Positions 9,812 through 40,589 of a DNA stretch of 64,000 bases are shown piece by piece. The notes under the pieces were generated by a model. The model worked only from the letters and a program-made list of their open reading frames with translations, searched no databases and had not been told where the DNA came from. The stretch's first letter is position 1. Every line of letters begins with the position of its first letter. Origin of the DNA: an uncultured Actinomycetes bacterium (lineage in GTDB: Bacteria; Actinomycetota; Thermoleophilia; RBG-16-64-13). Location: assembly GCA_963714175.1 (NCBI GenBank), contig CAVQNN010000003.1:520201-584200 (forward strand). Direction: 5' to 3'. Both the position numbers and the translations under genes were made by a program.

Positions 9812-11659
9812 CTATGCGCAGATCACTTCGGCTATGTCATCCAGGCCCAATTCAAGGAGCTTGGTCTTGCTCGGCATGCCGGTTGCTTTGTCCCAATCCA
9901 TCAGATCCATGTACTCGTCGTAGATCTCTGCGTGCGTGAAGGTGATGCCGGCACGCGGACCCTGGGTCTTGGCGGGGATGCCCCGTAGCCGTTCAGGATA
10001 CTTGAAGGGTGTGACTATGCCTTCTCGCTGGTTGAACGCTTGCCGTACGTTGGTGATGCGCTCACCGGTCTTGAGTATTTCTTCCGTGGTCAGGTCGTCC
10101 CAGCCCGTGATCGCCTTCATGGCCTCGACCAACTGATCGACGTGCGGATATGACCCGATGACGAATTGGCACAGGCCCAACGCGCTGGCGGCGTGCAAGT
10201 AGTTCGTGCTGGTCTTGTGATAGAGCCCGCGACCGGCGCGAGCGGCGCGATCGACCTCATCGATGAGACCCGGTGGGTGCTGCCCGCCCCCTTGATTGTG
10301 GCGGCCAGGTGTGGGGTCCGCTCCGTACCCGGTGGCGAAGCCCCAGCTTCCCCTTGGGTCGTGGGCCCCGATCTCCTGCCCTCCGACGTGCATCGCGTAC
10401 TTTTCGGAGCCCTTGCCGACCCTCTCCGCGGCCAGCTTCACCCCGTCAGCAAGGATGTCGCCGAACCCCTCGCGCTTGCCGATCATCTCGGTCATGGCAA
10501 CGATGGCCTTGTGATTGCCCCAGGTCATCTCCAGTCCGCCGGTATCTTCCTTGCCGATGATTCCATTCTCGTAGCATTCGATCGCGAAGGCGACACAACC
10601 TCCGGCGGATATGGTGTCCACACCCAGTCGGTTGCAGATGTCGGAGGCGACGATGATCGAATCGAGGTTGCCGTTCGCGCAGTTGCTGCCGAACATCGCC
10701 AGCGTCTCGTACTCGGGCTTGTGGGCGCCCTCCTCGAACTCGTATTCCCCGGTCCCCGCCTTCATGATGCCGCCGCACGCAATGGGGCAGCGCCAGCAAC
10801 CATACCGGCGCTTCTGCTTGGCAAACACAGGTGGGCCACCGCAGTCCTCGTAGTTCGGCACATCTATCGCGGCGACACCGCCCCAATTCTTGGACGGCGC
10901 ATCGTCGCTGTTGCAGCACATGCCATAGATGCCGGGCGTGCCGAACTCGTGCAGCCCTTCCTTGTGGCCACCGAGGGCGTCGACGTGCCTTTTGTGCATC
11001 GCCTTGAGCGCTGCCGGTTCGGAGGCCCCGGGAGGCTGCAGGGTGCCCTGGACGGCAACGGCCTTGAGCCTCTTCGAGCCCATGACCGCGCCCAGTCCCG
11101 AGCGCGCGGCAGCGCGGCCCTTGTTGCACATCACCGAAGAAATGAGGGCCAGCTTCTCTCCGCCGGGGCCGATGCAGGCCACTTGAAGGTCCTTGCCATG
11201 CTCCTGCCTGAGGATGTCCTGGGTCTCGAAGGTATCCTTGCCCCAGACGCCGGCAGCGTCTCTCAGTTCGGCCTTGCCGTTGTTGATATGCAGGTACACC
11301 GGCGTGTCCGATATACCGGTGAAGAACACCGCATCGTAGCCGGCGAACTTCAGGTAGGGCCCGAACTCCCCGCCCGAGTTGGCGTCTCCCCAGCCGCCCG
11401 TCAGCGGCGACTTGCCGACGACGACATACCGCGAGCCCCCGACACCCTCGGTGCCGGTCAGGATCCCGGTGACGAAGCCGAGTGTGGCCTCAGGGCCGAG
11501 CGGATCGACGCCCGGCTTCTGACGGTCGAAGAGGATCCTCGCGCCCAGGCCGTAGCCCCCGAGGTACTCCCGAGCCGTCTTCTCATCCAGGGGCTCTTCT
11601 CTCATCTCTTTTGTGGATAGATCCACCCAGAGGATCTTTCCCATCACACCAAAACCCAC
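9812..11659 (-). CDS. aor: Tungsten-containing aldehyde:ferredoxin oxidoreductase (AOR family)
   Basis: 615 aa. N-terminus MGKILWVDLSTKE is typical of AOR. Conserved GLGARILFD and Cys-rich CWRCPIACGG [4Fe-4S] region. Full-length AOR domain architecture. Confidence 0.9.
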   Translation of the reverse strand: MGFGVMGKILWVDLSTKEMREEPLDEKTAREYLGGYGLGARILFDRQKPGVDPLGPEATLGFVTGILTGTEGVGGSRYVVVGKSPLTGGWGDANSGGEFGPYLKFAGYDAVFFTGISDTPVYLHINNGKAELRDAAGVWGKDTFETQDILRQEHGKDLQVACIGPGGEKLALISSVMCNKGRAAARSGLGAVMGSKRLKAVAVQGTLQPPGASEPAALKAMHKRHVDALGGHKEGLHEFGTPGIYGMCCNSDDAPSKNWGGVAAIDVPNYEDCGGPPVFAKQKRRYGCWRCPIACGGIMKAGTGEYEFEEGAHKPEYETLAMFGSNCANGNLDSIIVASDICNRLGVDTISAGGCVAFAIECYENGIIGKEDTGGLEMTWGNHKAIVAMTEMIGKREGFGDILADGVKLAAERVGKGSEKYAMHVGGQEIGAHDPRGSWGFATGYGADPTPGRHNQGGGQHPPGLIDEVDRAARAGRGLYHKTSTNYLHAASALGLCQFVIGSYPHVDQLVEAMKAITGWDDLTTEEILKTGERITNVRQAFNQREGIVTPFKYPERLRGIPAKTQGPRAGITFTHAEIYDEYMDLMDWDKATGMPSKTKLLELGLDDIAEVICA

Positions 11660-15886: not shown

Positions 15887-15945
15887 ACCAATCGCGACGG
15901 TCCCGAACGCACCGGAAGGGCCCTTGGCACTGGCAAGCGACCGCT

Positions 15946-17403: not shown

Positions 17404-17433
17404 GCGGTTACTGAGACTAGGAGGAGCATCGCC

Positions 17434-17850: not shown

Positions 17851-17865
17851 CATCGAGGAGGCACA

Positions 17866-18603: not shown

Positions 18604-18616
18604 AGGAGCAAGAAAC

Positions 18617-18838: not shown

Positions 18839-18840
18839 GA

Positions 18841-20544: not shown

Positions 20545-20608
20545 TAGAGGCAAAACGGGGGAATACGAGCAAACGGACCGAGACTGAGGAGGAGGCAAGG
20601 AAGATACG

Positions 20609-22075: not shown

Positions 22076-22126
22076 CGGCGTAGTGACCGTTAGAGACAAA
22101 GCTGTGCAATAGAAGGAAGGAGCGAA

Positions 22127-23392: not shown

Positions 23393-23410
23393 GAAGGAGG
23401 GCGGTACGTC

Positions 23411-24901
23411 TTGGCTCTAGACAAGGATATCCACAGCGCGTTTGCAGATGTGGTGGGCGAGGAAAACATCTGTGACGATCCGGTGATGATGGCTTCGTAT
23501 TTCAAAACCGACTTCGCCGCCGTGATCTTGCCCAAAGACACGGCCGAGGTCCAGGCGGTCGTCAAGCTGTGCAACAAGTTCAAGCTGAAGTTCCGACCCA
23601 TCAGCACGGGTTGGACTGGAGTGTTCATCCCGGGCACCGTGCTGATCGATCTCAGGCGGATGAACAAGCTCATCGAGATCGACGAGAAGAACATGTTGGC
23701 GGTTTGCGAACCGTATGTGACCTCGGCCCAGCTGCAGGCTGAGCTCTTCAAGCGGGGTCTGAACACAAACATCAAAGGCTCAGGTGCCCAGGGCTCGGCG
23801 TTGCTGCGCGGCCACGGGGCCATGGACCAGTCCTGCGGGGCCGACGACAGGAACCATCTGGCCGTCGAGTGGGTGACCCCGGAGGGTGAGCTGGTGAGAA
23901 TCGGCTCGTGGGGTTCTTCGAACGAGTGGTTCTGTGGTGACGGGCCCGGCCCCTCCCTTCGGTGCCTGGTGCAGAGCACGGTGCCGCCGAGCGTGACGCC
24001 GGGGATCTTCACCAGGGTCGCCACCAAGGTCTACCACTGGCCGGGGCCCGAGAGATATCACCTGAAGGGCAACTCGCCGAACTACAGCCTCATCGAGCAG
24101 CCGGCGAACATGTTGCTGCGCTACTACAGCTTCCCAACGATCGACAAGTTGATGGAGGCGGAGAAGAAGATCGGCGAGAGCGAGATCTCCTTCATATGCT
24201 ACGGAATCAACTCAGCGATGGTCTCCGCGAACGTCACCCCCAGCAACGAAGAACAGATGGCCTTGTTCGATGTCGTCTCGAAAGAGGTGCAGGGCAACGG
24301 CTTCGTCGTGATCATCGCCGGCAACTCCGATGGGGATTTCGCGTACAAGAAGAAGGTGCTCGACACGATCATAAGCGAGACCGACGGCCTGTCGATGAAG
24401 ACGGTCGAAAGACCCGAGATCGAGGAGATCCTGCTGCGTCAGTGCACCCGGATCAGCGGCGCCATCAGAGAGACGTTCCGGCCCGGAGGCTACTTCAAGT
24501 CGCTCCCGGTCATGGGCCAGCGCGATCTGACCGTCCGGTGGGCGATCGGAGCCGGCGAGGCCAAGATGCCCCTCATCGAGAAGGGCTTGATCGTCGACGA
24601 CGGCGGGGCCTTCTTCGGTTGGGGAGTCGAGCACGGGCATCTCGGCAAGACCGAGATCTTCTGCGCGTTCAGCCCCATGAACCCCGAAGCCTGGAAGGGC
24701 GTCGACGCGTGGGAAGCGGAGCAGGGCAAGAGAGCGGTGGACGAGAAGTACTTCGCACTCACGATGGCCAGTCTAGACGTGATCGACGAGAGGACCGGAC
24801 CGGCCATGTCCAACTACCATCTGTGGTGGTACAAGGTGCTGGACACGCTCGATCCGAACGGAGTCATACCGCTGAAGGGCGTGAGCAAGCTCACACCTTA
24901 G
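23411..24901 (+). CDS. FAD-linked oxidase (PCMH-type, GlcE-like second subunit)
   Basis: 496 aa. TTG start after AGGAGGG. FAD_binding_4-like region (AEVQAVVKLCNKFKLKFRPISTGWTG...) with C-terminal LDPNGVIP. Confidence 0.8.
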   Translation: MALDKDIHSAFADVVGEENICDDPVMMASYFKTDFAAVILPKDTAEVQAVVKLCNKFKLKFRPISTGWTGVFIPGTVLIDLRRMNKLIEIDEKNMLAVCEPYVTSAQLQAELFKRGLNTNIKGSGAQGSALLRGHGAMDQSCGADDRNHLAVEWVTPEGELVRIGSWGSSNEWFCGDGPGPSLRCLVQSTVPPSVTPGIFTRVATKVYHWPGPERYHLKGNSPNYSLIEQPANMLLRYYSFPTIDKLMEAEKKIGESEISFICYGINSAMVSANVTPSNEEQMALFDVVSKEVQGNGFVVIIAGNSDGDFAYKKKVLDTIISETDGLSMKTVERPEIEEILLRQCTRISGAIRETFRPGGYFKSLPVMGQRDLTVRWAIGAGEAKMPLIEKGLIVDDGGAFFGWGVEHGHLGKTEIFCAFSPMNPEAWKGVDAWEAEQGKRAVDEKYFALTMASLDVIDERTGPAMSNYHLWWYKVLDTLDPNGVIPLKGVSKLTP

Positions 24902-25394: not shown

Positions 25395-25592
25395 CTACTT
25401 GCACTCCAGCAGTTCTTCGACCTCGGCCATTCTGCCCTCAGCCAGCTCCTGAGGTATGAAGACCTTGCCGCACTTGGGGCAGGCCGGCACTTCGTGGGCG
25501 ACGGTGTTGCCCAGGTATGAGAAGACCGTCTTCTTCAGCACCAGTTCCCTGTCGCACTTGCCGCATTTCCAGATTCTCGCCTCAGCGTTCAC
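25395..25592 (-). CDS. Small zinc-ribbon protein (CxxC...CxxC, YgiT/MqsA-N-like)
   Basis: 65 aa, KCGKC...CPKCG. Immediately upstream of, and co-oriented with, the RHH gene. Confidence 0.5.
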   Translation of the reverse strand: MNAEARIWKCGKCDRELVLKKTVFSYLGNTVAHEVPACPKCGKVFIPQELAEGRMAEVEELLECK

Positions 25593-27862
25593 GCCGGTTG
25601 CTCCCCTCGATCGAAGCGCATGCGGTGATAGTAGGCGCTCAGTACCTCGTATGTCGTGGAGCCGTTTCTCGATACTGCACCCAGTAGGTGATGACGGGCT
25701 TGATCATGCTGGCACATGCACATGCCGTCGCTCTCGTCGTAGAACTTGTCGCCGGAGCTCTCCGCCAGCCATATCGCTTCCTTGAGGTCGGCTGCGGATA
25801 TCAGCTTCTTGTCCATGCTCTTCTGCAGTTCATCGCTGATGATCAGAGTCAGCTGATCCCATGCATGAGGCTCCGGCTGAAAATCGACATCCTGATTCTG
25901 CTTCATCAGTTCTCTCTTTACCCTCAGGCTGTTGTCCCGCTTCTCCTGGAGGCTGGGCACCCGGTCGTCTGGCGCCCAGCCCGAAGACCATGTCCAGGAT
26001 GTGTGCGCACTCCTTGCCCCGCGAAGCGAAGACCTCCTTGCAGTTGGCGCAGTAGACAATATAGGGCTTCTCGCTCGCCTCGGCGCGGTGCTGCGTGATC
26101 TCGTCGTAGAGCTCGGGATTGGCGATGCGTATGTGCCCGCCGTAGCCGCAGCAGCGGTTTCGTTCGCTGAGCTCCTCGAGCGCGACGCCCGCCTTCTCCG
26201 CAAGCTTCTCTGACGCCGGACTGCATCTCGTTGTCGTCCCTTGCCGCGCAGGGATCGAACACGGCGGCTTCGGGAAGAGGCTGGTTGGGGCGATCTCGTT
26301 CGGATCTCGCCAGCAGTTCGTAGAGCGACACCCTCGGGATCTCCGGCAGGAACAGGTTGAAGAGACTCTCGCAGGTCGCGCAGGCGAAGACCAGTGTGGG
26401 CTCTGCCCATATCGGTCCAGCTTCGCCGGATCTCTTCGATGTTCGCGCGTCATGCGCGCCTCGTCTCCCGCCCAGTAGGCGGGGGCGCCGCAGCAGCCGA
26501 GGATGATGCCCGCGTCGTAGTTCTCGCTCAGGAACTCATACGACCTCAGCACGTGCTCGGGATTCGACGCGCCCAGCTGGCAACCGGGATAGAAGGCGTA
26601 CTCGCAGGTCTCCTTCCCTTTCGGAGCGGAGGCGAAGGCGCCCTCTGAGGTGGCGAAATCCATCTCGCGCAGCCAGAAATCGTGCAGCGCGGCGGGATGG
26701 ACGCCGGCGCTCATGCGCGCCGCGCGCGAGAACTGCAGCAACGCGCCCATGTCCACCTTGACGGGGCACACCGACTTGCAGTAGCCGCAGATGTTGCAGG
26801 AGTAGACCTCCCTGGTCAGCGCGTGAGCGGAGAAGGGCGGAGTTGACTCCCATGTCGGTGTACACCTCGACCGCGATCTTTTGGGGATCTTTGCGGAAAC
26901 TCTTCAGCATCTCGCAGGCGGCCATGCAAGTGTCGCAATCGCATTGCAGGCAGCGCGCAGCCTCCGCCTTTGCCTCCTCCTCGGTAGTAGCCGTCGGGGC
27001 TGGCGGCCTCCACGCGAGGCACGGAAACAGCGTCTTCGTGCTTGAGGTAGCGTTCGCAGTTGCTCTTGTCGTAGTCGCCGAGCCGTGAGGTGCCGGCGCG
27101 CGCCTTGCCCGTCTGGAGGAACACCTCGATGGTCTTGGACACCTCGGTGCCCTGGGCGATGCCTTCCATGAGTGTTGGCCCCGCACAGCGCTCCGCCCAT
27201 GAACACCTTGGGGACCGAGGTTGTGAGCAGATCGCGGTCCCAGCTCTGGAGAAGCCCGAAGGAATCGCCGCCGGCTCCCGTCGCGATATATACGGCGTCG
27301 AAGTCGGCCAGCTCGTCGAGGGTCCTGATCTCCGTTCCATAGCGGAATTCCACCTCGACGGCGGAAAACTGCAGGGCTATATCGGCGTCGAATTCGGCGA
27401 AGCGGGGATGGGAGCGGAGGACGCCGCCCCAGCCGTTCTGCCTTTTCGAACACCGTGACCGGGAATTTCTTCTGGGCGAGATTCAGCGCGCAGGAAAGGC
27501 CGACGGCCCGCGCCGACGACGGCGATGCGCTGAGTCTTTGGGCGGTATGACGTAGGATTCCGCTCTGCGATTCTTCGCGTATCGAAGGCAGGCGGCCTCA
27601 AGGTCGCGCAGGGCGATCGCCTCGTCTCCGAGCAGCGTGCGCTGGCAGTGATCTCTGCACGGCTGATCGCAGAGCGTGCTGACGATAACGGGAAAGACGG
27701 TGGCGTTGCGCAGGGCTCTTGTAGGCCGCCATCCATCTGCCCTTGCCCGCCTTTGTCCAGAAACGAACGGATATCCATGTGGAACGGACACGCGTAGGAA
27801 CAGGAGGCGGGCTCTCCGCGAAAACACTTCGCGGTGTATGCAGTGGAATCCTCAAGCTTCAT
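25589..27862 (-). pseudogene. Fe-S flavoprotein oxidoreductase (GltD-like FAD/NAD(P) domain with CxxC/CP Fe-S motif, fused to a CCG-domain region), broken by many frameshifts
   Basis: Start MKLEDSTAYTAKCFRGEPASCSYACPFHMDIRSF at 27862. Later fragments: EFRYGTEIRTLDELADFDAVYIATGAGG, EAARCLQCDCDTCMAACE, CCG motifs CCGAPAYWAG / CCGYGGHIRIANPELYDEI, and an intact-looking C-terminal ~110 aa. Pieces lie in all three minus frames. Confidence 0.55.
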
Positions 27863-28004
27863 AGATCTCATCCTCGACGAAACAGCACAGATCGCCACGG
27901 ATTCACCGATTTCACGGATCCAGTGTATCTGTGGAATCCGTGCATCCGTGGCGTTCCTTCTCATATGCGGGTTGGCCTTGATCATCTCCAGCTCTTCCTC
28001 GAAG

Positions 28005-30803
28005 TCAGTGCCCGAGGAAGTACTTCGGAGGCGTCAGGTCCTCGCCGCGCTGCTTGGCTTCCCAGCCGGCCTTGACCTTGTCGGGAGTCGCGGGCAGAGC
28101 GTAGACACGGACGCCGCAGGCGTTGTTGATGGCGTTGATGACCGCCATGTGGTTGGAGCTCTGGAAGACTTCGGAGCAGCCGCAGGATCCATGAGGTCCG
28201 GCCGGACGCGGAGTCTCCTGGAAGATGAGGTTGAAGTCGTCCGGAATCACGTCGATGGTGGGGATGCCGCAGCCGACCATGTTGCCGTGCTTGTCCTCCG
28301 CGTCGTAGTCCTCGCTGAGAGCGAAGCCGATGGAATGGGAGATTCCGCCGTAGCCCTGGCCTTCGACGGAGAGCATGTTGCCGACAACGCCGACGTCGCC
28401 GACCCAGGTGAATCTCAGAACCTGGGTCTTGCCGGTGTTGACATCGACCTCGACCAGCGCGACGTTGACGCCATACATGTAGGTCGGGTTCTTTTCGCCT
28501 TCGCCGGTGTTGGGATCGAGTCCGGGCGGCAGACCGATGTTGAACTGGTCGTAGTGGCCGACGTACTTGGTGGGAATATCTTCGGCGACCATTTCGGCGT
28601 AGGTGCGATAGGTGCCGTCCTCCTTGCGCATGGCATCCATCAGCTTGCTTGGCGGCATCGATGGTGGCGTTGCCGGCCATGTAGTGGGAACGGCTGGCGG
28701 CGGCCAGGCTGGTGTCCGGGCAGGTCTTGCTGTCGTTCATGACGAGCCTCACCTGGCTCGCCTTGATGCCCAGAGGCGCAAGCGCCTTCACGGTGTGGGT
28801 CAGCGTGCCGATGTCGCCGCCCTGGCCCATGTCTTCCCAGGTGTTGAAGTGGGTGATGGTGCCGTCGGCGTTCAGTTCGAGGGCTACCTCGGCATGGTCG
28901 AACATGCCGATGGTGATGATGAACCCGCCCATGCTCATGCCGACGCCCACATGCCTGCCCTGAGCCTTGGCCGCCTCGGCCTCAGCCTTGTACTGGTCGT
29001 AGATCGGCTTGGCCTTCTCGAGCAGAGTCGGATAGACATATTCGTGATAGGGACGGCTGTTGATGGTGAGGTCGCCCGGCCTGGCCGCGTTCTTGTAGCG
29101 GAACTCCCAGGGATCGATGCCGGCCTTCTCGGCGGCCATGTCGATGAGGGCCTCGGTGGTGGTGTAGATCTGAGGAGAGCCGAAGCCGCGGTAGGCGGTG
29201 TTGAACGCATGGTTCGAGGAACCGCCGCGGGCAAGGGCCTTGAAGTTGGGGATGTTGTAGCCGTGGAATCCGACCGAGACGAGGTTGTTGAAGATGGGCC
29301 CACCGACGACGTGCGTAGGCGCCGTGGTCGAGGGCGATGTCGTATTCGGCGGCGATGATCTTGCCTTCCTCGTCGCAGGCGATGCGGCCGTTGGTGAAGG
29401 TGGCCGACCTCTTGCCGGTCATGTGGTTGAACTCGTCGTAGCTCAGAGTCAGCGTGCAGGGCATATCCAGATTCTGGACGGCCGTGACGACCAGCGCATA
29501 GGTGTTGGAGCTGACCGTGTAGCCGAAAGAACCGCCAACGTGGTTCAGGATGCATCCGGATGTTCTCCTTGGGGATGCCGCAGGCCATGGACACGAACTC
29601 TCTGTTCTCCGTCAGAGACTGGCACTTGCACTGGATGGTCATCATGCCGTCAACGCCCCAGTAGGCCTGAAGGACATCCGGCTCGATGGGCAGATGAGGC
29701 TCATGCTGGGAGTGGAAGCTGCCCTCGGCGACAACGGGAGCCGTCTCGAACAGCTCGGCGGTGTCCTGGCCCTTGAAGACGGGCTGCTCCATATAGAAGT
29801 TGGGCAGGCTCTTCGTGGAGCTGGATGGCGTTGGGCATGACAGCTTCGGGGAAGGTCATGTAGGCGGGCAGGATCTCCAGGTTCTGCTTGACCTTCTTGG
29901 CGGCCGCGCGGGCATGCTCCTCGGTGTCGGCTGCGACCAGAGCCACCACGTCGCCGCGCCGGCAGATCTTCTTGCCGGCGATGACGGGGAACTCCGTGAT
30001 GCCTTTGCCCTTCTGGCGCGCGAGTGTGGACGGGAGACGCCATGTTGTTGGTGCCCTTGACGTCCTTGGCGGTCATGACCTTGATGACGCCGGGCATCTG
30101 CTTCGGCTTCACTGGTGTCGATGCTGATGATGTTGGCGTGAGGAACCTCGGAAAGCGACGACGGCGAGGTGGGCGGTGCCTTCGGGCATCTGCAGCTTGA
30201 CATCATCGCCGTAGTCGGCAAGACCGGTGACCTTGGCCAGAGCGGTCGGCCTGGGGTGCTTGGATCCGTAGATTTCCTTCTCACCCTCGAAGTCATAGGT
30301 GATGTCTTCCATGGTGGCTTCGCCGCGCATGACCTTGGCGGCCGCCATCACGGCGTCGACCAGGGGCTTGTAGCCGGTGCAGCGGCAGATGTTGTGGTGA
30401 TCCTTGAACCACTCGCGGACCTCTTCGCGGGTGGGAGAGGCGTTCTCGGCCAAGCAGGCCGTAGGCGGAGACGATGAAGCCGGGGGAGCAGAAGCCGCAC
30501 TGGGCGCCACCGTAGGTGATCCAGGCCTGCTGCAGGGGATGCAGGTGCTGAGGAGTGCCGATGCCCTCAATGGTGGTGATCTCGCTGAATTCGGGCACCC
30601 GTCTTCATCTTCTTGGTGCAGGAGCGAACCACTTCGCCGTTCAGGATCACGGAGCAGGCGCCGCAGACGCCGGTGCCGCATCCGATCTTGACGCCGGTGA
30701 GGCCCATGCGGCGGAGAACCACCGCCAGAGTGTCCTTCTCGGGGTCGCAGACAACGAATCTTTCGACGCCGTTGATCTTCAAGCTCATTCTTGCGAGTTT
30801 CAT
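28005..30803 (-). pseudogene. Mop-type molybdopterin aldehyde oxidoreductase, single polypeptide (2Fe-2S domains + MoCo domain), copy A; many frameshifts
   Basis: Start MKLARMSLKINGVERFVVCDP...GCGTGVCGACSVILNG (2Fe-2S). Further pieces: second Fe-S domain [54 protein letters not shown], the MoCo domain, and C-terminal ALPATPDKVKA. These match the Desulfovibrio-type Mop architecture. Fragments lie in all frames. Confidence 0.7.
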
Positions 30804-30981
30804 GTTCTCTTCCCTATCCCATAGACGACACGGTTCACTTGCTGTTGCGCGGGTGCCGCAACGGCTGCACCCCTGATCTCGTATGACCACGGGCTACACC
30901 GGCTCCCACAGACCGATTTCGCGACTGTGGAGGACGGTGCAGCCCGTGGGCTACACGTTCGCCTCTTTCGAGGCCCGCTAC

Positions 30982-33816
30982 TTATCCGATCGGGTTGGCC
31001 TTGATCATCTCCAGCTCTTCGTCGAAGTCGGAGCCGAGGAAGTACTTGGGAGGTGTCAGGTCCTCGCCGCGCTGCTTGGCCTCATACGCGGCCTTGACCT
31101 TGTCGGGAGTCGCGGGCAGGGCGTAGACACGAGCGCCGCACGCATTGTTGATGGCGTTGATCACTGCCATGTGGTTCGAGCTTTGGAACACCTCGGAGCA
31201 ACCGCAGGAACCGTGAGGTCCGGCCGGACGCGGCGTCTCCTGGAAGATGAGGTTGAAGTCGTCGGGGATCATGTCGATGGTGGGTATGCCGCAACCGACC
31301 ATGTTGCCGTGCTTGTCCTCCGCGTCGTAGTCCTCGCTGAGAGCGAAGCCGATGGAATGCGAGATGCCGCCGTAGCCCTGGCCCTCGACGGAGAGCATGT
31401 TGCCGACCACACCGACGTCACCGACCCAGGTGAACCTCAGTACCTTGGTCTTGCCGGTGGCCACATCGACTTCGACCTGCGCGACGTTGACGCCATACAT
31501 GTAGGTGGGGTTCTTCTCGCCCATACCCGTGTTGGGGTCGAGTCCCGGAGGCAGACCGATGTTGAACTGGTCGTAGTGGCCCGACGTACTTGGTCGGGAT
31601 GCCTTCGGCGACCATCTCGGCATGAGTGCGGTAGGTGCCGTCTTCCTTGCGCATGGCGTCCATCAGCTGGTTGGCCGCGTCGATGGTGGCGTTGCCGGCC
31701 ATGTAGTGCGACCGGCTGGCAGCGGCCAGGTTGGTGTCGGGGCAGGTCTTGCTGTCGTTCATCACGAGCCTCACCTGCTCCGGCTTGATGCCCAGAGGAG
31801 CAAGCGCCTTCACGGTGTGAGTCAGAGTGCCGATGTCGCCGCCCTGTCCCATGTCTTCCCAGGTGTTGAAGTGGGTGATGGTGCCGTCTGGGTTCAGCTC
31901 GAGAGCCACCTCGGCGTTGTCGAACATGCCGATGGTGATGATGAAGCCGCCCAGGCTGATGCCGACACCGACATGCCTGCCCTCGGCCTTGGCCGCCTCG
32001 GCCTCAGCCTTGTACTGGTCGTAGACCGGCTTGGCCTTCTCGAGCAGAGACGGATAGACGTAGTCCTGATACGGACAGCTGTTGATGGTGAGGTCGCCCG
32101 GCCTGGCCGCGTTCTTGTAGCGGAACTCCCAGGGATCGATGCCGGCCTTCTCGGCGGCCATGTCGATGAGGGCTTCGGTGGTGGTGTAGATCTGAGGAGA
32201 GCCGAAGCCGCGATAGGCGGTGTTGAACGCGTGGTTCGTGGAGCCGCCGCGGGCCAGAGCCTTGAAGTTGGGGATGTTGTAGCCGTGGAATCCGACGGAA
32301 ACCAGGTTCATGAAGATGGGGACGACTGCCGTAGGCGCCATGGTCGAGCGCCACGTCGTATTCGGCCGCGACGATCTTGCCTTCGTTGTCGCAGGCAAGC
32401 CGGCCGTTGGCGAAGGTGGCCGACCTCTTGCCGGTGGTGTGGTTGAACTCGTCGTAGCTCAGAGCGTCAGCGTGCAGGGCATGTCCAGGTTCTGGACGGC
32501 GGTGACCACCAGCGCGAAGGTGCTCGCGGCGATGGAGTAGCCGAAGGAGCCGCCGACGCAGTTCAGCAACATGCGGATGTTCTCCTTGGGAATGCCGCAG
32601 GCCTGGGAGATGAATCCTTGGCTCTCCGAGAGGTTCTGGCACTTGGACTGGATGGTCATCATGCCGTCGACGCCCCAGTAGGCCTGGACGACATCGGGCT
32701 CGATGGGCAGGTGAGGCTCATGCTGCGAGTGGAAGCTGCCCTCGACCACAACGGGCGCCGTCTCGAAGAGCTCGGCCGTGTCCTGTCCCTTGAAGACCGG
32801 CTGCTCCATATAGAAGTTGGGCATGGTCTTCGTGGAGCTGGATGGCGTTGGGCATGACCGCTTCGGGGAAGGTCATGTAGGAGGGCAGGACCTCCAGGTT
32901 CTGCTTGACCTTCTTGGCGGCCGCGCGGGCATGCTCCTCGGTGTCGGCTGCGACCAGAGCCACCACGTCGCCGCGACGGCAGATCTTCTTGCCGGCGATG
33001 ACGGGGAACTCCGTGAGGCCCTTGCCGCTTGTGCGGGGAACGTGCAGCGGGCCGGCCAGGTTGTTGCTGCCCTTGACGTCCTTGGCGGTCATGACCTTGA
33101 TGACGCCCGGCATCGCGTCGGCCTCGGCGGTGTCGATGCTGATGATGTTGGCGTGATGGGCCTCGGCGAGGACCACGGCCAGGTGCGCGACGCCCTCGGG
33201 CATCTGCAGGGCCACGTCGTCGCCGTAGTCGGCAAGTCCGGTGACCTTGGCCAGAGCGGTAGGCCTGGGGTGCTTGGATCCGTAGATCTCCGTCTCACCC
33301 TCGAAGTCGTAGGTGATGTCGGCCATGGTGGCTTCGCCGCGCATGACCTTGGCAGCCGCCATCACGGCGTCGACCAGGGGCTTGTAGCCGGTGCAGCGGC
33401 AGATGTTGTGGTGATCCTTGAACCACTTGCGGACCTCTTCCCGGGTGGGAGAGGCGTTCTCGGCCAGGAGGCCGTAAGCGGAGACGATGAAGCCGGGGGA
33501 GCAGAAGCCGCACTGGGCTCCACCGTAGGTGATCCAGGCCTGCTGCAGGGGATGCAGGTGCTGAGGAGTGCCGATGCCCTCGATGGTGGTGATCTCGCTG
33601 AACTCGGCCACCCGTCTTCATCTTCTTGGTGCAGGCGCGGACCACCTCGCCGTTCAGGATGATCGAGCAGGCGCCGCAGACACCGGTGCCGCATCCCACC
33701 TTGACGCCGGTGAGGCCCATGCGACGGAGAACCTCCGCCAGAGTGTCCACCTCAGGGTCGCAGACCACAAACCTTTCGACCCCGTTGATCTTCAAGCTCA
33801 TTCTTGCGAGTTTCAT
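30982..33816 (-). pseudogene. Mop-type molybdopterin aldehyde oxidoreductase, copy B (tandem paralog, ~90% nt identity to copy A); many frameshifts
   Basis: Start and 5' UTR (GATAGGGAAGAGAAC ATG AAACTCGCAAGAATGAGC...) are identical to copy A. Same domain pieces, with indels at different positions. Ends ...YFLGSDFDEELEMIKANPIG*. Confidence 0.7.
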
Positions 33817-34356
33817 GTTCTCTTCCCTATCTCCAATCAGGAATCGACTCCATTGCCCGACAGCTGCCATGCTGGCTTCCCGCCCCGCCATTCTACCGTA
33901 TCTTTGGCGCTTTTCGTGAACGGGTGAAGGCCTCAATCAGCGGTGAATCGGGCGGCTGCGGAGGTCGCCCCGGCGACCACGATCTGGGTGCTCGGCGGTA
34001 CCTGATTGTGGGCTTGGGCCGCTGTTCTACGTCCCCACATTGTGTAGAATACGGTCCGGCCGGTCCATGTTTGGACGCTAGAAAGGAGGAGACATCGTGG
34101 TGCTTCACCGTAGAACCTGAGTCGGCGCCTGCGGTACACGTCGTGTGCCAGGCACATCGACCACGGCTCAAGCTGTCTCCTCTATCGGCCTGCCTCTCGT
34201 CTGATCTAGCCGCAAGTCCCCACTTCCGGCCCAGGTCCACAACCGGCCCGCTGCCAGAGCGAGACCGCCGGCTGCGACCGCAGCTACAAATGATCCACTG
34301 TTCGCGCCGCAGTGCTTGCGCGCTGCGCGCGCTCACATCACAAGGAGAACGTAGCA

Positions 34357-35202
34357 ATGCATCGTTGGAAACTGCCCTTCATGATCCTCGCCCTCGTACT
34401 TCTCGCGAGTCTAATGGTAGTCGGCTGCTCCGGGGGCGACGAAAGCGACACCACCATCACGAGTGTCGACTCAAGCGTCACAACCGTCACGGCCGCGGCA
34501 AACGACGCCTCTTGGCAGACAGTCGCCGACCGGGGCAAGCTCGTCGTCGGTCTGTGCGCGGAGTACCCTCCGTTCGAATCGCGCGATGAGGCCGACAACG
34601 CCCCCGTCGGCTTCGACGTCGACCTGGCCAACGCCCTGGGGGAGAAGCTGGGTGTCGAGGTCGAGGTCGTGGACGCCGCCTGGGAAGGTCTGCTGGGCGG
34701 GATCCTCAAAGGCGACTACGACGTGCTCATCACCGCCATGTCTCAACAAGAGGCGGCCGCTGAGAGCGTCAACATGAGCGATCCCTACTACGACTTGGCC
34801 GAGGTTATCGTCGTCGCGGCCGACGACACCAGCATCGCGACGGTCGATGATCTCGCGGGCAAAGTGGTCGGAGTGCAGAGCGCCTGTAGCGCGGAACAGG
34901 CTGTCGACGCTCTCACCGAGCTCAAAGAGGTCAAGCGCTACAACCGCAACGCCGAGGCCTTCCTCGATCTCCGCGCCGGCCGGGTGGACGCGGTCGTGGT
35001 GGGAGAGGCCTACGCCGCTACGGAGGCCAAAGGTCAAGAAGGAATCAAGGTGGTCGACGCGGATGTTGCCACCAACTCCCTGGTGTTCGTATCCAAAGCC
35101 GGGGGCGACGCGCTCACTGCCAAGCTCAACGAGGCTCTCGCTCAGCTCAAAGAAGACGGCACGTACGAGCAACTGGTGACCAAGTGGTTCTCCTTCAACT
35201 AG
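34357..35202 (+). CDS. Polar amino-acid ABC transporter substrate-binding lipoprotein (family 3)
   Basis: RBS AAGGAGA. Lipobox LMVVGCSGG. SBP_bac_3-like body (GKLVVGLCAEYPPFESRD...GDYDVLITAMSQ). Confidence 0.85.
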   Translation: MHRWKLPFMILALVLLASLMVVGCSGGDESDTTITSVDSSVTTVTAAANDASWQTVADRGKLVVGLCAEYPPFESRDEADNAPVGFDVDLANALGEKLGVEVEVVDAAWEGLLGGILKGDYDVLITAMSQQEAAAESVNMSDPYYDLAEVIVVAADDTSIATVDDLAGKVVGVQSACSAEQAVDALTELKEVKRYNRNAEAFLDLRAGRVDAVVVGEAYAATEAKGQEGIKVVDADVATNSLVFVSKAGGDALTAKLNEALAQLKEDGTYEQLVTKWFSFN

Positions 35203-35206
35203 ACAC

Positions 35207-35872
35207 ATGAACCTGGACTTCAGCCACGTCTGGAAATCCGCCTCGTTCATCCTCTGGGGCGCCTCCCATACCCTGGAGATCAGTCTGATGGCGTTCGTCC
35301 TGGCGCTCCTCATCGCATATGCGGTGGGGATTGCCAGGGCGCGCCGGCCCTCCCGCTGGCTTTCTCTGCCTTTGGGAGCCTATGTGGAAGTCTTCCGGGG
35401 AACGCCGTTCCTCGTCCAGGTGTTCCTCATCTACTACGGTCTGCCGGAGATCGGCATCGTCATGAACGCGTGGACCGCCGGCGTCGTCGGCCTCGCACTG
35501 AACAGCGGTGCCTACATGTCCGAGGTGGTGCGCGCCTGTCTCCTTTCTGTCGATCGCGGCCAGGGCGAGGCCGCTGAGGCTCTGGGCTATGGACGGTGGC
35601 AGGCTCTCCGGCACGTTGTCCTGCCCCAGGCCACGCGCACTGCCATCCCGCCTCTGACCAACTCGCTGGCCTCGCTCCTCAAGGAGAGCTCTCTGGTATC
35701 GGTCATCGCTATCACCGAACTCTTCCGCGTGGGCAATATCATCTACGCGAGAACGATGGCGCCCTTCGAGATCTACCTGACCATAGCTTTCCTCTATCTG
35801 GTCATGACCTCAGCCGTGACACTCGCTTCCCGCCGACTGGAAAGGGCGAATCAGAAGTGGTCGATTTCCTAG
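35207..35872 (+). CDS. Amino-acid ABC transporter permease (HisM/GlnP family)
   Basis: 221 aa with the EAA-like motif EAAEALGYGRWQALRHVVLPQA. Confidence 0.85.
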   Translation: MNLDFSHVWKSASFILWGASHTLEISLMAFVLALLIAYAVGIARARRPSRWLSLPLGAYVEVFRGTPFLVQVFLIYYGLPEIGIVMNAWTAGVVGLALNSGAYMSEVVRACLLSVDRGQGEAAEALGYGRWQALRHVVLPQATRTAIPPLTNSLASLLKESSLVSVIAITELFRVGNIIYARTMAPFEIYLTIAFLYLVMTSAVTLASRRLERANQKWSIS

Positions 35873-36597
35873 AGGTCAGAGAGGTGACCAAGTCTTTCGG
35901 AGACCTGAGGGTGCTCGACCGGGTGTCGCTGTCGCTCGAACCGGGGGAGATCGTCATGCTCATCGGCTCGAGCGGTTGCGGCAAGAGCACTCTCCTCCGC
36001 TGCATCAACGGCCTGGAGCCCGTCGACTCGGGGAAGGTGGAGCTACGCGGGCAGACCCTGCAGGGCAGATCCCGCGAGGCCCGGGAGGCGCGCAGGAGGG
36101 TGGGCACGGTGTTCCAGCACCTGAACGTGTTTCCTCACAAGACCGTGCTCGAGAACGTCGCCAACCCTCTGCGAGTGGTCCGCGGTCTTGAGAAGAAGGA
36201 GGCGGCCGCGGTCGCGGCGGAACAGCTGGCGCGTGTCAAGCTGACCGACAAGCTGGCCGACTATCCGGTGAGCCTCTCCGGGGGTCAGAAGCAGCGTGTG
36301 GCGATCGCCCGAGCACTGGCCATGGAGCCCGAGATCATGCTCTTCGACGAGCCCACCTCTGCTCTCGACCCGGAGATCGCCTATGAGGTGCTGGACACTA
36401 TCCACGACCTGGCCTCCGAGGGTCTGGCCATGATCATCGCCACTCACCAGGTGAACTTCATCGGCAGCTTTGCCCACCGCATTGTCTTCTTGGCCGACGG
36501 CAGGTTCGTCACCGACGGCCCTCCCGAGGTGGTTCTTGAAGGAACGGATGATCCGCAACTGAATCGGTTCCTGAAGCGGCTGCGGGAGAACACGTGA
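35860..36597 (+). CDS. Amino-acid ABC transporter ATP-binding protein (GlnQ-like)
   Basis: GTG start overlapping the permease end. Walker A GSSGCGKST and signature LSGGQKQRVAIARAL. Confidence 0.85.
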   Translation, partial: VDFLEVREVTKSFGDLRVLDRVSLSLEPGEIVMLIGSSGCGKSTLLRCINGLEPVDSGKVELRGQTLQGRSREAREARRRVGTVFQHLNVFPHKTVLENVANPLRVVRGLEKKEAAAVAAEQLARVKLTDKLADYPVSLSGGQKQRVAIARALAMEPEIMLFDEPTSALDPEIAYEVLDTIHDLASEGLAMIIATHQVNFIGSFAHRIVFLADGRFVTDGPPEVVLEGTDDPQLNRFLKRLRENT

Positions 36598-37800
36598 CCG
36601 GCGTGATCACGGGGCAAGGGCAACGGCAGTGGCGGCGATTCTCGCCCTTGGTACTCAAGGACAACGAGACCGAGGCGCGCGAGCGTCTGCGCGCCTTCCT
36701 GGACGGGGCGAGTCTGGGCGATCGCCCGGCCCTGTGGGTGGTCGCCGACGTCGAGAACCCGTGGGCCGTTCCGCCCCTGCCGGGCGACCGCAAAGGACCA
36801 CCGATCCTGTCCTACAAGCCGAACTCGCCAGATCCCTCGGAGTACCCGATCCAGTGCGCAAGGCCGCCGATCTCGACCCTGCCTGGCACATCGGGCGAAT
36901 CGATAGCGCGCTCGCGAACACCGCCTTTCTCGCGGAGGCCATGCCTACAGCCAGTGTGATGGTTGGCACCGATATCACCGACACGACTGTTCTTCTGGGC
37001 GGCGACTACGACTACATCCATGGGGAGGCGATCATCCGGCGAGACCCCCGGATTCTGGAGTACCCCGTGCCCGCGTTCGATCCCGGGCATCCATTCGTCC
37101 AGCGACTCGAGGGCGTCTACCGTTCCGTTGTCGAGCACGTGGGCCGAAGGGCGTTCGTGAATACAGTGATGACCCTGGATGGCGTTGACTACGATGTCCC
37201 AGCTCAGTGGTCCTCGGGACTTGTGTCTGGACCTCATGCGCCGTCCGGATTGGGTCGTCGAGCGGACGATCGAGATCACCCGGCTGAATATCGCCCTTCT
37301 ACCGGCATTTCTACGGTCTGCTGCGAGACCTCGGCCACGGCGAATCGAGCGCATGGTTCCACACCATGGCTGAAGGGAGGTTCGATTGTCTGAGAGCAGA
37401 CTTCACGTTCATGGTATCCCCGTCGATGTTCGAGCGGTTCGCCGTCCCCGAACTGCGGATGCAGAGCGAGTCGCTCGACCATTCTCTGTTCAACATGGAC
37501 AGCGTCAAGATGCTCCGGTTTCTGCGTCCGCTGGCGTGGATACCCAAGCTCGACGGGATCTACTGGAACCCGGAGCTGCCGCACCGCAGCTTGCGCGCGT
37601 GGATCCACGCCTTGCGCGAGATCAGGCGGTTGGGACTGATCGTGGAGGTGACGGCTGTGGATGTCGAAGAGGCCTGCTTTGTCGCCCACGCCCTTGGTCC
37701 CGACGGTCTCCTGATCGCATTGCCGCGGTTCTCGTCGCCGGACGAGGGTCTGGCCGCCATCGAACGAGTGAAGAAAGCCTGTAAAACCCAGTCTCCCTAG
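36594..37800 (+). pseudogene. Second URO-D-family (MtaA/CmuA-like) gene, fragmented by at least three frameshifts
   Basis: Fragments in three frames. The C-terminal SPSMFERFAVPELRMQSESL...LRPLAWIPKLDGIYWNPE matches 16141-17403 (MSIEQFETFYWPQLKSILETL...). An internal piece is DLCLDLMRRPDWVVERTIEI. Confidence 0.5.
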
Positions 37801-37813
37801 GAAAGGAGCTCCT

Positions 37814-38312
37814 GTGAAACGTGGGAGGAAAGTGGCCGTGGTCGCTCACTGCCTGCTGGACGTGAACACCAAGGTCAAGGGGTTGGCGACATATGCCGGG
37901 AGTCCATCCAGTGGTGCGCGAGCTGATCTCGGAGGACGTGGCCATCATCCAACTGCCCTGCCCGGAGGTGGCCCACCTGGGCATGCGGCGGTGGGGGATG
38001 ACTAGGGAGCAGTACGATGTGCCGGCCTACCGGCGGCTCTGCAGTCGCCTGGCCGAGCCTGTCGTGGACACGTTGACGGAGTTGGTCGGCGACGGATGCG
38101 AGATCGTGGGCGTGTGGGGGGTAGATGGCAGCCCCAGTTGCGGAGTGGAAGTCACCTGCGAGGGATTCTCGGGGGGCGAGCTCGAATCGCTGGGGGCGAT
38201 CCCATCGAGCGCCCACGTTCCCGGCGAAGGGGTCTTTCTCTCGATCCTGCGGGAGGCCTGTTCTCGAGCGGGGCTGGACGTCAGTTTCCGGGCGGTTGCA
38301 GAGGAGGAATGA
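37814..38312 (+). CDS. DUF523-like (2-thiouracil desulfurase-like) small protein; one frameshift near nt 37900
   Basis: MKRGRKVAVVAHCLLDVNTKVKG (frame 2) continues as HPVVRELISEDVAIIQLPCPE...VWGVDGSPSCGVE (frame 1). Confidence 0.5.
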
Positions 38313-38446
38313 ACTGGCGGCGGCGTTCGCCAGATGGCTCGGGCGCGTCGGCACTAACACAAGAGTCCACTCTCGCACTATCATAGTAGCCCGACCATGG
38401 GAAGGGTCCAGCTCGAGCACGTACTACCTGGCACAAGAGGGGACAG

Positions 38447-39883
38447 ATGATCAAGTTCAGCGAGCAGCAACTCAAAACGCCCAAGTTCATGCGACCGGTG
38501 TATCTAGTGAGCGCCGGTCAGTCCAAGTACGACAGGGCGAACCCGTACAAGAGGACCGAAGAACTATGCATCGACGCCCTCACCATGTCGGCGGAGCTAC
38601 TCGGACTCACCCCGGCAGAACTCAAGAGGTACATCCATACCTGCTACTACGGGCATTTTGCCGATCATTTCGGGGACCAGCTCCTTGGTGAAGCCCTGAT
38701 CCACGATCGCCTAGGTCTAGATCCTCTCGGCAACACCGGCGTCAAGTCGGGCGGCGCGACAGGCGGCTCGACCATCTGGGAAGCCGCGAAGGCGGTAGCG
38801 TCCGGCTATTCGGACTGCACTCTCGCCATGGGGTGGGAGCGGATGGACGAAGTGCCCACCGACGAGGGCAACTTCCTGATCGCGGCCGCGGCCGACAGAG
38901 ACTGGGAATCTCCCATGGGGCAGATCTACACGGGCTACTACGCGGTCATGGCCCAGAAGTACTGGCAGGTGTTCGGCAAGGCGGAGGCCTCGTTCCGGCG
39001 CACTCTGGCCGAGATCTCGGTGAAGCACCACGGCTACGCCCGCTTCAACCCGTTCGCTCACGGCGCCATGAAGATCACGGTCGACGACGTTCTGATGTCG
39101 CCCATCATCGCCGACCCGCTTCGGGCCCTCGATGCCTGCCTCATGAGCGTAGGCGCAGCCTGCGTGATCCTCTGCGACGAAGCCACGGCCATGGAGCTGA
39201 CCAAGAACAGCAAGAACAAGCCGCTCAGACTCTTCTCGACCGCCGGTTCACACACTCTGCGTCCCGCGGACAGACGCGATATGGACATACCGCTGCTTCC
39301 CAACGAGACGGCCGGACAGTACAAGAACCTGGGCAAGGAGTTCCCCGGAGGCGACCGCTATCCGGGCTTCACCGGCTTTCTCGCTGCCAGGATGGCGGCC
39401 TACTACGGCTACCGCATGGCGGGCGTCGTCGATCCTACGGAGGATTTCGACGTCATCGAACTGCATGACGCCTTCACCATCAGCGACGTGCAGACGTACG
39501 AGGACATCGGTCTGAGGCCATATGGCCACGGGCGTGACTTCGTCGAGTCCGGCGACTGCTACCACACCAACCCGCACACAGGCAAGCCGGGCAAGCTGCC
39601 TTCGAACCTCTCCGGCGGGCTGATCGGCTGCATGCACGCGGTCGGTGCCAGCGGCATCATGCAGGTGTTCGAGCTGGCGACGCAGATCTGGGGTCGGTGG
39701 GCCGAGATCCACGGCGACCCGAAGCGGTGGAAGGACTTCGGCAGGGAGAAACCCGCGGATTGGACCGACCTACAGGTCAAGGGCGCGAAGAGGGGCCTTT
39801 CCATCAGCCATGCCGGCGTGGGGTCGCACGTGACGGCCACCATCCTCATGGATCCCGACCATCTGATAAAGAAAGACGCGTAG
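38447..39883 (+). CDS. SCP-x-type thiolase family protein (BbsB/Ltp2-like)
   Basis: 478 aa. Thiolase-fold segments (TLAMGWERM, SNLSGGLIGCMHAVGASG) with a non-acetoacetyl-type active site. RBS AAGAGGGG. Confidence 0.85.
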   Translation: MIKFSEQQLKTPKFMRPVYLVSAGQSKYDRANPYKRTEELCIDALTMSAELLGLTPAELKRYIHTCYYGHFADHFGDQLLGEALIHDRLGLDPLGNTGVKSGGATGGSTIWEAAKAVASGYSDCTLAMGWERMDEVPTDEGNFLIAAAADRDWESPMGQIYTGYYAVMAQKYWQVFGKAEASFRRTLAEISVKHHGYARFNPFAHGAMKITVDDVLMSPIIADPLRALDACLMSVGAACVILCDEATAMELTKNSKNKPLRLFSTAGSHTLRPADRRDMDIPLLPNETAGQYKNLGKEFPGGDRYPGFTGFLAARMAAYYGYRMAGVVDPTEDFDVIELHDAFTISDVQTYEDIGLRPYGHGRDFVESGDCYHTNPHTGKPGKLPSNLSGGLIGCMHAVGASGIMQVFELATQIWGRWAEIHGDPKRWKDFGREKPADWTDLQVKGAKRGLSISHAGVGSHVTATILMDPDHLIKKDA

Positions 39884-40489: not shown

Positions 40490-40589
40490 CCTCCAGGTGC
40501 GAACGTTCTAGGCGCGTAGACATCTTGTCGTTTGGCGGCGGGCGGTCCACCATAGAGTGGTGGGCCGCCCGCGACTGTCTGGAGGGTCG

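Follow-up and report, generated by a model that had tools for sequence, protein, structure and literature searches.

Organisation of the tandem Mop-type genes and their neighbourhood

The window, i.e. the whole stretch of 64,000 nucleotides that was analysed, carries two genes for Mop-type aldehyde oxidoreductases lying head-to-tail on the minus strand, as the preliminary description had stated. Copy B (mopB) occupies positions 30982..33816, with its ATG at 33816-33814 and a TAA stop at 30984-30982, and copy A (mopA) positions 27961..30803, with its ATG at 30803-30801 and a TGA stop at 27963-27961. The repeat families at the two genes have a period of 3013-3023 nt and the same orientation. After removal of 6 extra bases, copy B reads as 942 codons plus TAA and, after removal of 11, copy A reads as 943 codons plus TGA, the latter including an A-specific two-codon insertion (GGTGGG, 'VVGGP'). 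The nucleotide identity of the copies, previously put at about 90%, amounts to 90.3% over 2857 aligned nt, and the proteins are 91% identical.

In a sequence comparison of the 178-nt spacer between the stop of copy B and the start of copy A (30804..30981, minus strand), resemblance to the leader region of copy B (33817-33836) was confined to the final ~20 nt, i.e. the RBS leader tgg-gatagggaagagaac. The leader and RBS of copy B, GATAGGGAAGAGAAC at 33817..33831 on the minus strand, equal the leader of copy A at 30804-30818 and lie at the 5' limit of the duplicated unit. Apart from this ~20-nt leader, no similarity beyond the CDS was found between the spacer and the regions downstream of A or upstream of B, and both the spacer and the two flanks of the pair are unique sequence. 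The duplicated unit consists of the RBS and the coding sequence. Identity of the two RBS/5' regions had been noted before and was said to extend over the first ~30 codons; it holds for 50 nt, made up of 15 nt of leader/RBS and 35 nt of coding sequence (11 codons plus 2 nt), and ends well short of 30 codons. Within the genes there are runs of identity that exceed this one (96, 84 and 73 nt), and so the shared 5' stretch cannot be taken as a sign of recent conversion. Scans for promoters and terminators yielded no signal above background.

Downstream of copy A, on the same strand, lies the gene of a partner Fe-S flavoprotein of ~750 aa with a Fer4_20 domain (25595..27862), whose ATG at 27862 is 98 nt beyond the stop of copy A and whose frame is interrupted by thirteen +1 breaks and one -1 break. 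Intact orthologs of this flavoprotein, whose genes immediately follow the Mop gene in L001 and L006, have FAD/NAD(P)-binding domains, 2x[4Fe-4S] and CCG domains, and the one from L001 matches FAD_binding_2, DAO, Pyr_redox_2 and NAD_binding_8. The last gene of the conserved module is a small Cys-rich gene on the minus strand (25398..25598, CGKC...CPKC). Relatives carry a DUF7479 gene at this position, in L001 and L160 following the flavoprotein gene, and the gene of the window is putatively DUF7479-like by position and sequence resemblance. Taken together, mopB, mopA, the flavoprotein gene and the small Cys-rich gene probably constitute an operon on the minus strand. The window also encodes an intact protein of 610 aa (9812..11644, minus strand) with the AFOR_N and AFOR_C domains (PF02730, E=1.2e-77; PF01314, E=1.2e-100), which, judged from these matches, is predicted to be a tungsten-type aldehyde:ferredoxin oxidoreductase. 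Thus, the earlier count of three aldehyde oxidoreductases from two cofactor families in the window was correct.

Enzyme family and domain architecture

Both copies matched the Pfam domains Fer2, Fer2_2, Ald_Xan_dh_C, MoCoBD_1 and MoCoBD_2, in agreement with the two 2Fe-2S domains and the MoCo domain assigned to each of them in the preliminary description. The plant-type [2Fe-2S] domain Fer2 (PF00111) was found at residues 9-62 of corrected A and also in homologs of corrected B, the helical [2Fe-2S] domain Fer2_2 (PF01799) matched residues 77-151 (E=1e-28), and the matches to the Ald_Xan_dh_C hammerhead, MoCoBD_1 and MoCoBD_2 (PF01315, PF02738, PF20256) were full-length. Between the Fe-S and the Mo domains of the corrected protein, neither FAD_binding_5 nor CO_deh_flav_C was matched in Pfam. 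The protein could be aligned to the 907-aa MOP chain without interruption, while the match to 1330-aa XDH chains fell into two separate stretches.

The aldehyde oxidoreductase MOP of D. gigas contains two [2Fe-2S] clusters and a molybdopterin cofactor. Corrected B aligned to residues 6-905 of this protein (1SIJ/1VLB) with E=3.7e-256, including the motif CGTGVCGAC. The segment GCSEVFQSSNH of corrected B was aligned with GVGELPLTSPH of 1SIJ, which places Glu on the catalytic Glu near the Mo centre (Glu869 in D. gigas MOP). Like D. gigas MOP (and also D. desulfuricans 1DGJ), the products of the window genes are single polypeptides with two [2Fe-2S] domains followed by the Mo-cofactor domains and without a FAD domain. 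Unlike in D. gigas, they have ~35 additional C-terminal residues (...QRGEDLTPPKYFLG[ST]DF[DE]EELEMIKANP[IL]), their genes form a tandem pair, and the pair is followed by the ~750-aa Fer4_20/FAD/CCG flavoprotein gene and the small Cys-rich gene with its DUF7479 counterparts in relatives. Since the interruptions of the reading frames described below were judged to be consensus errors, the extra bases being absent from orthologs, membership of the real genes in the Mop family is secure.

Position and nature of the frame breaks

As written, the reading frame of copy A is interrupted by eleven breaks and that of copy B by five. These were located by banded frameshift-aware DP alignment, and orthologs were taken, among others, from L162 (ENA ERZ25039495 contig_49695), an independent assembly of a related organism that is syntenic with the window at 87-93% nt identity. 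All 16 breaks are extra bases, eleven of +1 in A, and four of +1 and one of +2 in B; neither deletions nor, after correction, in-frame stops were found in the two copies.

All positions in this paragraph are on the minus strand. Break 1 of copy A (30602..30605) reads AAG-A-CGG, where orthologs have AAA-CGG, and is the same as the one at 33615-33618 in B. Break 2 (CTG-C-TTG, 30454..30457) falls on a codon at which the A ortholog of L162 has an error of its own (aa 116), and the A ortholog is likewise broken (aa 234) at break 4 (GCA-G-ATG, 30098..30104). Breaks 3 (GTC-G-CTT, 30156..30159), 7 (ATG-C-ATC or ATG-CaTC, 29549..29555), 9 (CAA-G-CTG, 28647..28650) and 10 (GGG-C-ACT, 28013..28016) are each of +1, as is break 5, an extra base within CTCGCGCGC (30019..30022). 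Break 6 (GAG-C-CTG, 29808..29814) lies a few nt from the place equivalent to break 2 of copy B, and break 8 (GCA-C-GTC, 29311..29314) affects the same codon as break 4 of copy B. Break 11 (ccg-c-ata-tga, 27964..27970) directly precedes the stop and creates an apparent read-through towards the flavoprotein gene. In copy B, break 1 (AAG-A-CGG, 33615..33618) coincides with break 1 of A, break 2 (32822..32831) reads CA-T-G for CAG in the ortholog, break 3 consists of two extra bases in CTGACGCTCTG (32466..32470), break 4 (32327..32333) reads GG-C-A-GTC where the ortholog has GGA, and break 5 (31582..31585) reads GGG-C-CAC where the ortholog has GGG and paralog A GGC.

These results bear on two statements made earlier about the pair. 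Many frameshifts at different positions had been reported for the two copies; both are indeed broken, but three of the five sites of B coincide with sites of A (33615/30602, 32822-31/29808-14 and 32327-33/29311-14). The ends of the genes are as described, with ...ANPIG-TAA in copy B and copy A, as written, running on (...ANPHMRR...). The latter had been read as the boundary of the duplication and is instead due to a single extra base before the real TGA stop.

Orthologs, synteny and selection

The L162 contig has the same B-A-flavoprotein order as the window. Its A ortholog shares the GG insertion of copy A, ends with ANPL-TAG, and is heavily broken, mostly at sites other than those of A in the window, and its B ortholog (P0122) is intact. 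Wherever copy A or B of the window is broken, precisely the base or bases in excess are missing from the L162 ortholog. Corrected B is 97% identical to another intact protein (P0001), on whose contig a gap of 179 nt is followed by another gene on the same strand, compared to the 178-nt spacer of the window. An exact search with 45-aa N-termini for this downstream gene gave no match, and a metagenome scan revealed no contig closer than 87-91%.

The codon-wise comparison of the copies proposed in the preliminary description was carried out after frameshift correction and resulted in a dN/dS of 0.17 for A versus B, compared to 0.146 for A and 0.084 for B versus their orthologs. The dS was 0.30 for the paralogs within the genome and 0.25-0.29 for the orthologs. 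The duplication predates the split from the organism represented by L162, and both copies have since been under purifying selection.

Clusters of Mop, flavoprotein and DUF7479 genes with the same order and 80-97% aa identity are found in MAGs of Actinomycetota, Acidobacteriota and Oscillospiraceae (L001, L006, L160). Most relatives carry a single Mop gene at this locus, whereas the window has two. Some Firmicutes have the order Mop-flavoprotein-Mop (L035, L042, L045) or a more diverged direct Mop-Mop tandem (L116). The 96-aa protein P0121 corresponds exactly to a part of copy B.

Frame breaks elsewhere in the window and their signature

Breaks of the +1 type were also detected in other genes of the window, namely ftsH (3), glpK, porB, ligD, those of two ABC ATPases, an ABC permease, a solute-binding protein and a PALP enzyme, and the Pfam matches of the corrected proteins are continuous across the break sites. 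The density of breaks in the mop-flavoprotein cluster is ~3.6 per kb, which is ~8x that of the rest of the window, and the regions 6-25 kb and 34-40 kb are without a clear intragenic break.

For 17 of the 27 insertions, the result is a synonymous doublet at the third codon position, compared to 40% of simulated random insertions, which is a modest excess (p=0.015); the null distribution was simulated with the same aligner, and an analytic estimate of p ~0.001-0.005 was dropped in favour of this weaker value. Only 26% of the insertions are compatible with homopolymers (34% expected at random). In the classic nanopore error, it is the length of a homopolymer that is wrong. The events in the window differ from it in that about a quarter are homopolymer-compatible and nearly all are insertions beside wobble positions. 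They resemble the indel errors of nanopore-only metagenomes, on the other hand, in that fragmented ORFs result whose pieces join into full-length conserved proteins. Three contigs of Microflora Danica MAGs and metagenomes (L160, L063 and L074) likewise have +1 breaks adjoining the third codon base, most of them readable as two synonymous third bases, and none were seen in L161, a contig of another assembly collection (Logan). The MAGs of Microflora Danica are built from nanopore reads only and were assembled by Flye with one round of Medaka (PMC12313526), and nanopore consensus indels lead to frameshifted gene calls (PMC9262707).

Interpretation of the locus

mopA and mopB are a genuine tandem paralog pair that is conserved and selectively maintained. 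We are largely confident in the reading that also accounts for their interrupted frames, namely that the breaks in these real and selected genes are extra bases introduced by consensus assembly rather than mutations. The extra bases are absent from the orthologs, which is why the breaks are regarded as errors of the consensus; for each individual base, error status is deduced from sequence comparison and is thus probable. The 16 breaks of the mop genes and the ~14 of the flavoprotein gene would be extra bases from consensus building, the metagenome assembly most likely being one of long reads (nanopore-type). Insertions only, beside wobble positions, suggest heterogeneous pile-ups rather than pore chemistry: the pile-up may have been mixed with reads from the paralog or from the 80-97% identical copies of the module in other community members, and a polymorphic wobble base may sometimes have been written twice, once per allele. 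The clustering of breaks at the mop module is probably due to such mixing of paralog or community reads, and a purely technical model of the ~8x density would appear to need it. Of the explanations offered before, 'mis-assembled' comes nearest to this, with the qualification that the arrangement is right and the consensus bases are wrong.

Decay of one or both copies by real frameshifts after a redundant duplication, the other explanation offered, has in its favour that both copies are frame-broken as written, that breaks are twice as numerous in A as in B, and that in L162, too, the A ortholog is heavily broken and the B ortholog intact. A is thus heavily damaged in both nanopore-type assemblies, and there may be a real relaxation of this copy. 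Nevertheless, we consider decay very unlikely. The dN/dS of A is 0.15-0.17, against B as well as against its ortholog, and not near 1 (0.08-0.17 over all comparisons), and small insertions occur throughout without any in-frame stop, deletion or truncation. As the breaks of A in the window and in L162 are mostly at different sites, decay would imply that each of the two lineages acquired its breaks recently and on its own, and the intact B ortholog as well as the same +1 lesions in ftsH and other housekeeping genes of the window and in other Microflora Danica contigs speak against it. To the idea that the tandem itself is an artefact, in which a single Mop gene is represented by two strain or species haplotypes laid side by side, we assign, if anything, still less weight. 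The sequence is clearly error-prone, metagenomes of the same kinds contain several Mop genes at 83-97% aa identity, and the paralog dS is no larger than the ortholog dS. However, a different organism (L162) has the same gene order with orthology copy by copy, as judged from the GG insertion and the identities, the gap on the P0001 contig matches the spacer in length, spacer and both flanks are unique, and Mop tandems occur in other assemblies, e.g. L116. An assembly duplication with only one real copy, which had been named as the finding that would overturn the pair, is therefore contradicted by L162.

That the extra bases are real and decoded by frequent +1 ribosomal frameshifting or transcript editing would be in line with breaks that are almost all +1, mostly adjoin third codon positions and interrupt otherwise well conserved frames, but it is given virtually no credence. 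The sites share no slippery or stop-codon motif and differ between related assemblies, the intact B ortholog has none of the five sites of B, the regions at 6-25 kb and 34-40 kb are free of clear breaks, and unrelated Microflora Danica MAGs from other taxa show this signature too. Programmed frameshifting was rejected for lack of a common motif and because the sites are missing in orthologs.

If consensus errors are the cause, both genes would be intact in the living cell, and, by analogy with the MOP family, their products would convert aldehydes to acids at the Mo centre, with the electrons travelling via the two [2Fe-2S] clusters to the flavoprotein encoded next to them. For long-read metagenome contigs, this means that a cluster of frameshifts should not be taken as pseudogenisation. 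Automated annotation evidently calls gene fragments on the contig of the window (P0121), and such calls can make the metabolic potential of a genome look smaller than it is and the number of pseudogenes larger. The signature, made up of insertions alone next to wobble positions, may be useful for spotting consensus errors without recourse to reads, and both alleles written in tandem may be a general and diagnosable consensus error of nanopore metagenomes at polymorphic sites.

With the frameshifts ascribed to extra bases of the assembly, the locus is ordinary and not decaying: in biological terms, it adds another pair of tandem paralogs to a well-known enzyme family and is of little significance. 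A more far-reaching idea, which we regard as speculative and rather unlikely, is that a horizontally spread and conserved four-gene module (two Mop paralogs, a fused GltD-like/HdrD-like Fe-S flavoprotein and a DUF7479-like protein) encodes an uncharacterised aldehyde-oxidising electron-transfer complex, in which the paralogs are kept as a heterodimer or by a split substrate range and undergo concerted evolution via gene conversion. As a minor observation, the neighbourhood of the pair is aldehyde- and aromatic-catabolic, and the host is an uncultured anaerobe.

Structure and identity of the tandem gene pair

Within the 64-kb window, just one large repeat is present, namely two Mop-type aldehyde oxidoreductase genes arranged head-to-tail on the minus strand. 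After frame correction, i.e. removal of the extra bases, copy B (mopB, ATG at 33816 to TAA at 30982) encodes 942 aa and copy A (mopA, ATG at 30803 to TGA at 27961) 943 aa, with a start-to-start distance of 3013-3023 nt. In a global alignment, the two copies share 90.3% identity across 2857 nt. The duplicated unit starts approximately 15-20 nt before the ATG, including the RBS leader GATAGGGAAGAGAAC, and ends with the final codons; besides this leader, no similarity was detected when the spacer of 178 nt between B and A was compared with the sequences flanking the pair. In the preliminary description, the first ~30 codons had been reported as identical. We found an identical 5' stretch of 50 nt, i.e. 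11 codons, which is not special since longer identical runs of 96, 84 and 73 nt are present elsewhere within the genes.

The gene identifications made in that description were confirmed by domain content, by alignment to a characterized MOP and by the intact tungsten-type AOR (W-type AOR) at 9812-11644. Corrected A contains Fer2, Fer2_2, Ald_Xan_dh_C, MoCoBD_1 and MoCoBD_2, and a FAD domain was absent in the domain scan; the close homologs retrieved with corrected B have the same five domains. Corrected B yielded a single continuous alignment with the aldehyde oxidoreductase MOP of D. gigas (1SIJ/1VLB) over MOP residues 6-905 (E=3.7e-256), in which the catalytic Glu of MOP is aligned. About 5000 homologs of 936-953 aa were retrieved, the top match being the intact protein P0001 with 97% identity to B. 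Both copies are ordinary representatives of the xanthine oxidase family (MOP branch), in which tandem paralogy is not unusual. The gene 98 nt downstream of A (25595-27862, minus) codes for a flavoprotein of ~750 aa with Fer4_20, two [4Fe-4S] and two CCG domains, the intact orthologs of which have FAD/NAD(P)-binding domains. It is followed by a small Cys-rich gene (25398-25598, minus), in the place of which relatives have DUF7479.

The tandem is, with high probability, a real arrangement, because the order mopB-mopA-flavoprotein is kept in the related syntenic contig L162 (ENA ERZ25039495 contig_49695; 87-93% nt identity), because a two-codon GG insertion of copy A is also found in the L162 A ortholog, and because spacer and flanks are unique. 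On the contig of P0001, the gap to the next same-strand gene is 179 nt, close to the spacer in the window. Other assemblies contain a tandem Mop pair (L116) or the order Mop-flavoprotein-Mop (L035, L042, L045). The dS values were 0.30 and 0.34 for within-genome paralogs, 0.25-0.29 for orthologs and 0.46 for one cross-genome paralog comparison. Paralog dS is thus no larger than ortholog dS and lies below the cross-genome value, which hints at gene conversion between the tandem copies, with read mixing as a source that may alternatively account for an artificial homogenisation.

Frame breaks in the two copies

Frameshift-aware alignment to intact homologs placed ten +1 events in copy A; in copy B, it placed four +1 and one +2. 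An eleventh +1 event in A lies right before the stop codon (ccg-c-ata-tga, 27961-27970). This extra base is what makes A seem to continue into the flavoprotein gene, a read-through that had previously been taken to mark the duplication boundary: after removal of one base, A ends with ANP(I/L)-TGA, and its ortholog ends with ANPL-TAG. Neither deletions nor in-frame stops were found in either gene. Three of the five B sites match A sites, one of them in identical sequence (AAGACGGGTG), a coincidence with a chance of p about 0.001 by hand estimate, given 11 A sites per 2.8 kb. The flavoprotein gene contains thirteen +1 events and one -1 event.

Five lines of evidence indicate that the breaks in A and B are assembly noise and not mutations. 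With the extra bases removed, the codon-wise comparison of A and B gave a dN/dS of 0.17 (dS 0.30, dN 0.051), and the values against the L162 orthologs were 0.146 (A) and 0.084 (B); breaks common to both copies cannot be ancestral if the two continued to evolve under such constraint. The B ortholog of L162 (P0122) is intact with 942 aa, and at every window break site, precisely the extra base(s) are missing from the L162 sequence; the A ortholog is interrupted by nine +1 events and two -1 events, mostly at other positions than A in the window. Gene decay in bacteria is typically biased towards deletions and involves several types of lesion, and the spectrum in A and B, which consists of insertions only, without stops or truncations, is the opposite and thus points to errors. 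Other genes across the whole window are affected as well: dynamic programming on codon usage (DP) located +1 breaks in ftsH (3), glpK, porB, ligD, two ABC ATPase genes, the ABC permease gene and the PALP enzyme gene, and about 8 in the solute-binding protein gene; after correction, the Pfam matches of the proteins were full-length and ran continuously through the break points, and three genuine frameshifts in ftsH are not credible. In loci of the Microflora Danica survey, all events found were +1 and lay beside the codon third base (L160, four; L063, one; L074, two), and no such +1 events were found in the Logan collection contig L161. The Microflora Danica MAGs are nanopore-only Flye assemblies with one round of Medaka polishing (PMC12313526), and indels in the consensus of nanopore assemblies are known to result in frameshifted gene calls (PMC9262707). 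The preliminary description was largely correct in what it observed, but not in its readings of two decaying copies and of a visible junction. The 96-aa database protein P0121, encoded on an NCBI/ENA contig of 1,368,673 bp, is an exact fragment ORF of copy B (32459-32824, minus), so public annotation of the source genome calls pieces of mopB.

Distribution and possible origin of the breaks

At 25.4-33.8 kb, breaks number about 3.6 per kb, compared to roughly 0.4 per kb elsewhere in the window. Error density is very uneven, with 6-25 kb and 34-36.6 kb looking clean. Such +1 breaks occur window-wide, at 61-5800 (+) in an ABC peptide transporter operon (permease, two ATPases, SBP_bac_5) and at 40560-41600 (+), 42690-43640 (-), 48766-50826 (-), 56770-58260 (-) and 61000-63040 (+), the genes affected in these six regions being those for the ABC peptide transporter, PALP enzyme, PFOR beta, LigD, glycerol kinase and FtsH. 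Across assemblies, break positions in the Mop copies A and B of the window and of L162 recur at aa 116, 234 and 257-260.

Homopolymer-compatible events made up 26% of the located insertions compared to 34% of simulated random insertions. Synonymous wobble doublets (GGG-C, CAA-G, GCA-C) accounted for 17 of 27 insertions compared to 40% in the simulation (p=0.015), and in several doublets both bases correspond to the alternative third base of the ortholog or paralog, e.g. at B break 5, where the window has GGGC, the ortholog GGG and paralog A GGC. Since sequencing chemistry is blind to codon positions, yet the breaks are tied to wobble sites, natural polymorphism is suggested to be involved in these insertions. 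Reads of the paralog, or of 80-97% identical module copies of other community members, may have entered the same pile-up; both alleles would then sometimes have been retained in the consensus, thereby adding a base. The metagenome ERZ25039495 contains at least four such Mop genes across two contigs. This account of the break clustering is plausible but unproven, the wobble statistic being modest.

A conserved Mop-flavoprotein-DUF7479 module

The gene order of the window is also found in relatives, as Mop, flavoprotein, DUF7479. In those from Actinomycetota, Acidobacteriota and Oscillospiraceae, the flavoprotein (a fusion of 750 aa) and the small Cys-rich gene always follow Mop, with 80-88% aa identity. 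The cluster looks like a mobile module, of which we know of no functional study. This widely shared module and the diagnostic error signature are the least ordinary features of the locus.

Compared to L162 (9815-9859), the window has about 4.4 kb extra at 33958-38351, between a thiolase-like gene (38447-39883) and mopB, which encodes an amino-acid ABC transporter (34312-36597) and contains one more gene at 36.6-37.8 kb. The neighbourhood at 6035-24901 includes, besides the W-type AOR, the TRAP transporter components DctM (11701-13020) and DctP (13663-14910), a URO-D-like protein (16081-17403), an SDR (17866-18603), a fumarate-reductase-like flavoprotein (18841-20544), two FAD_binding_4 oxidases (20609-22075 and 23411-24901) and a CCG/Fer4 protein (22127-23392), a gene content that suggests anaerobic aldehyde or aromatic catabolism. 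In an Acidobacteriota MAG (L006, 20256-21068), an inverted, truncated C-terminal Mop fragment of 271 aa with 90.8% identity to copy B lies 7.4 kb downstream of the full-length Mop of that MAG, which is further evidence of a tendency of the Mop gene towards duplication or transfer.
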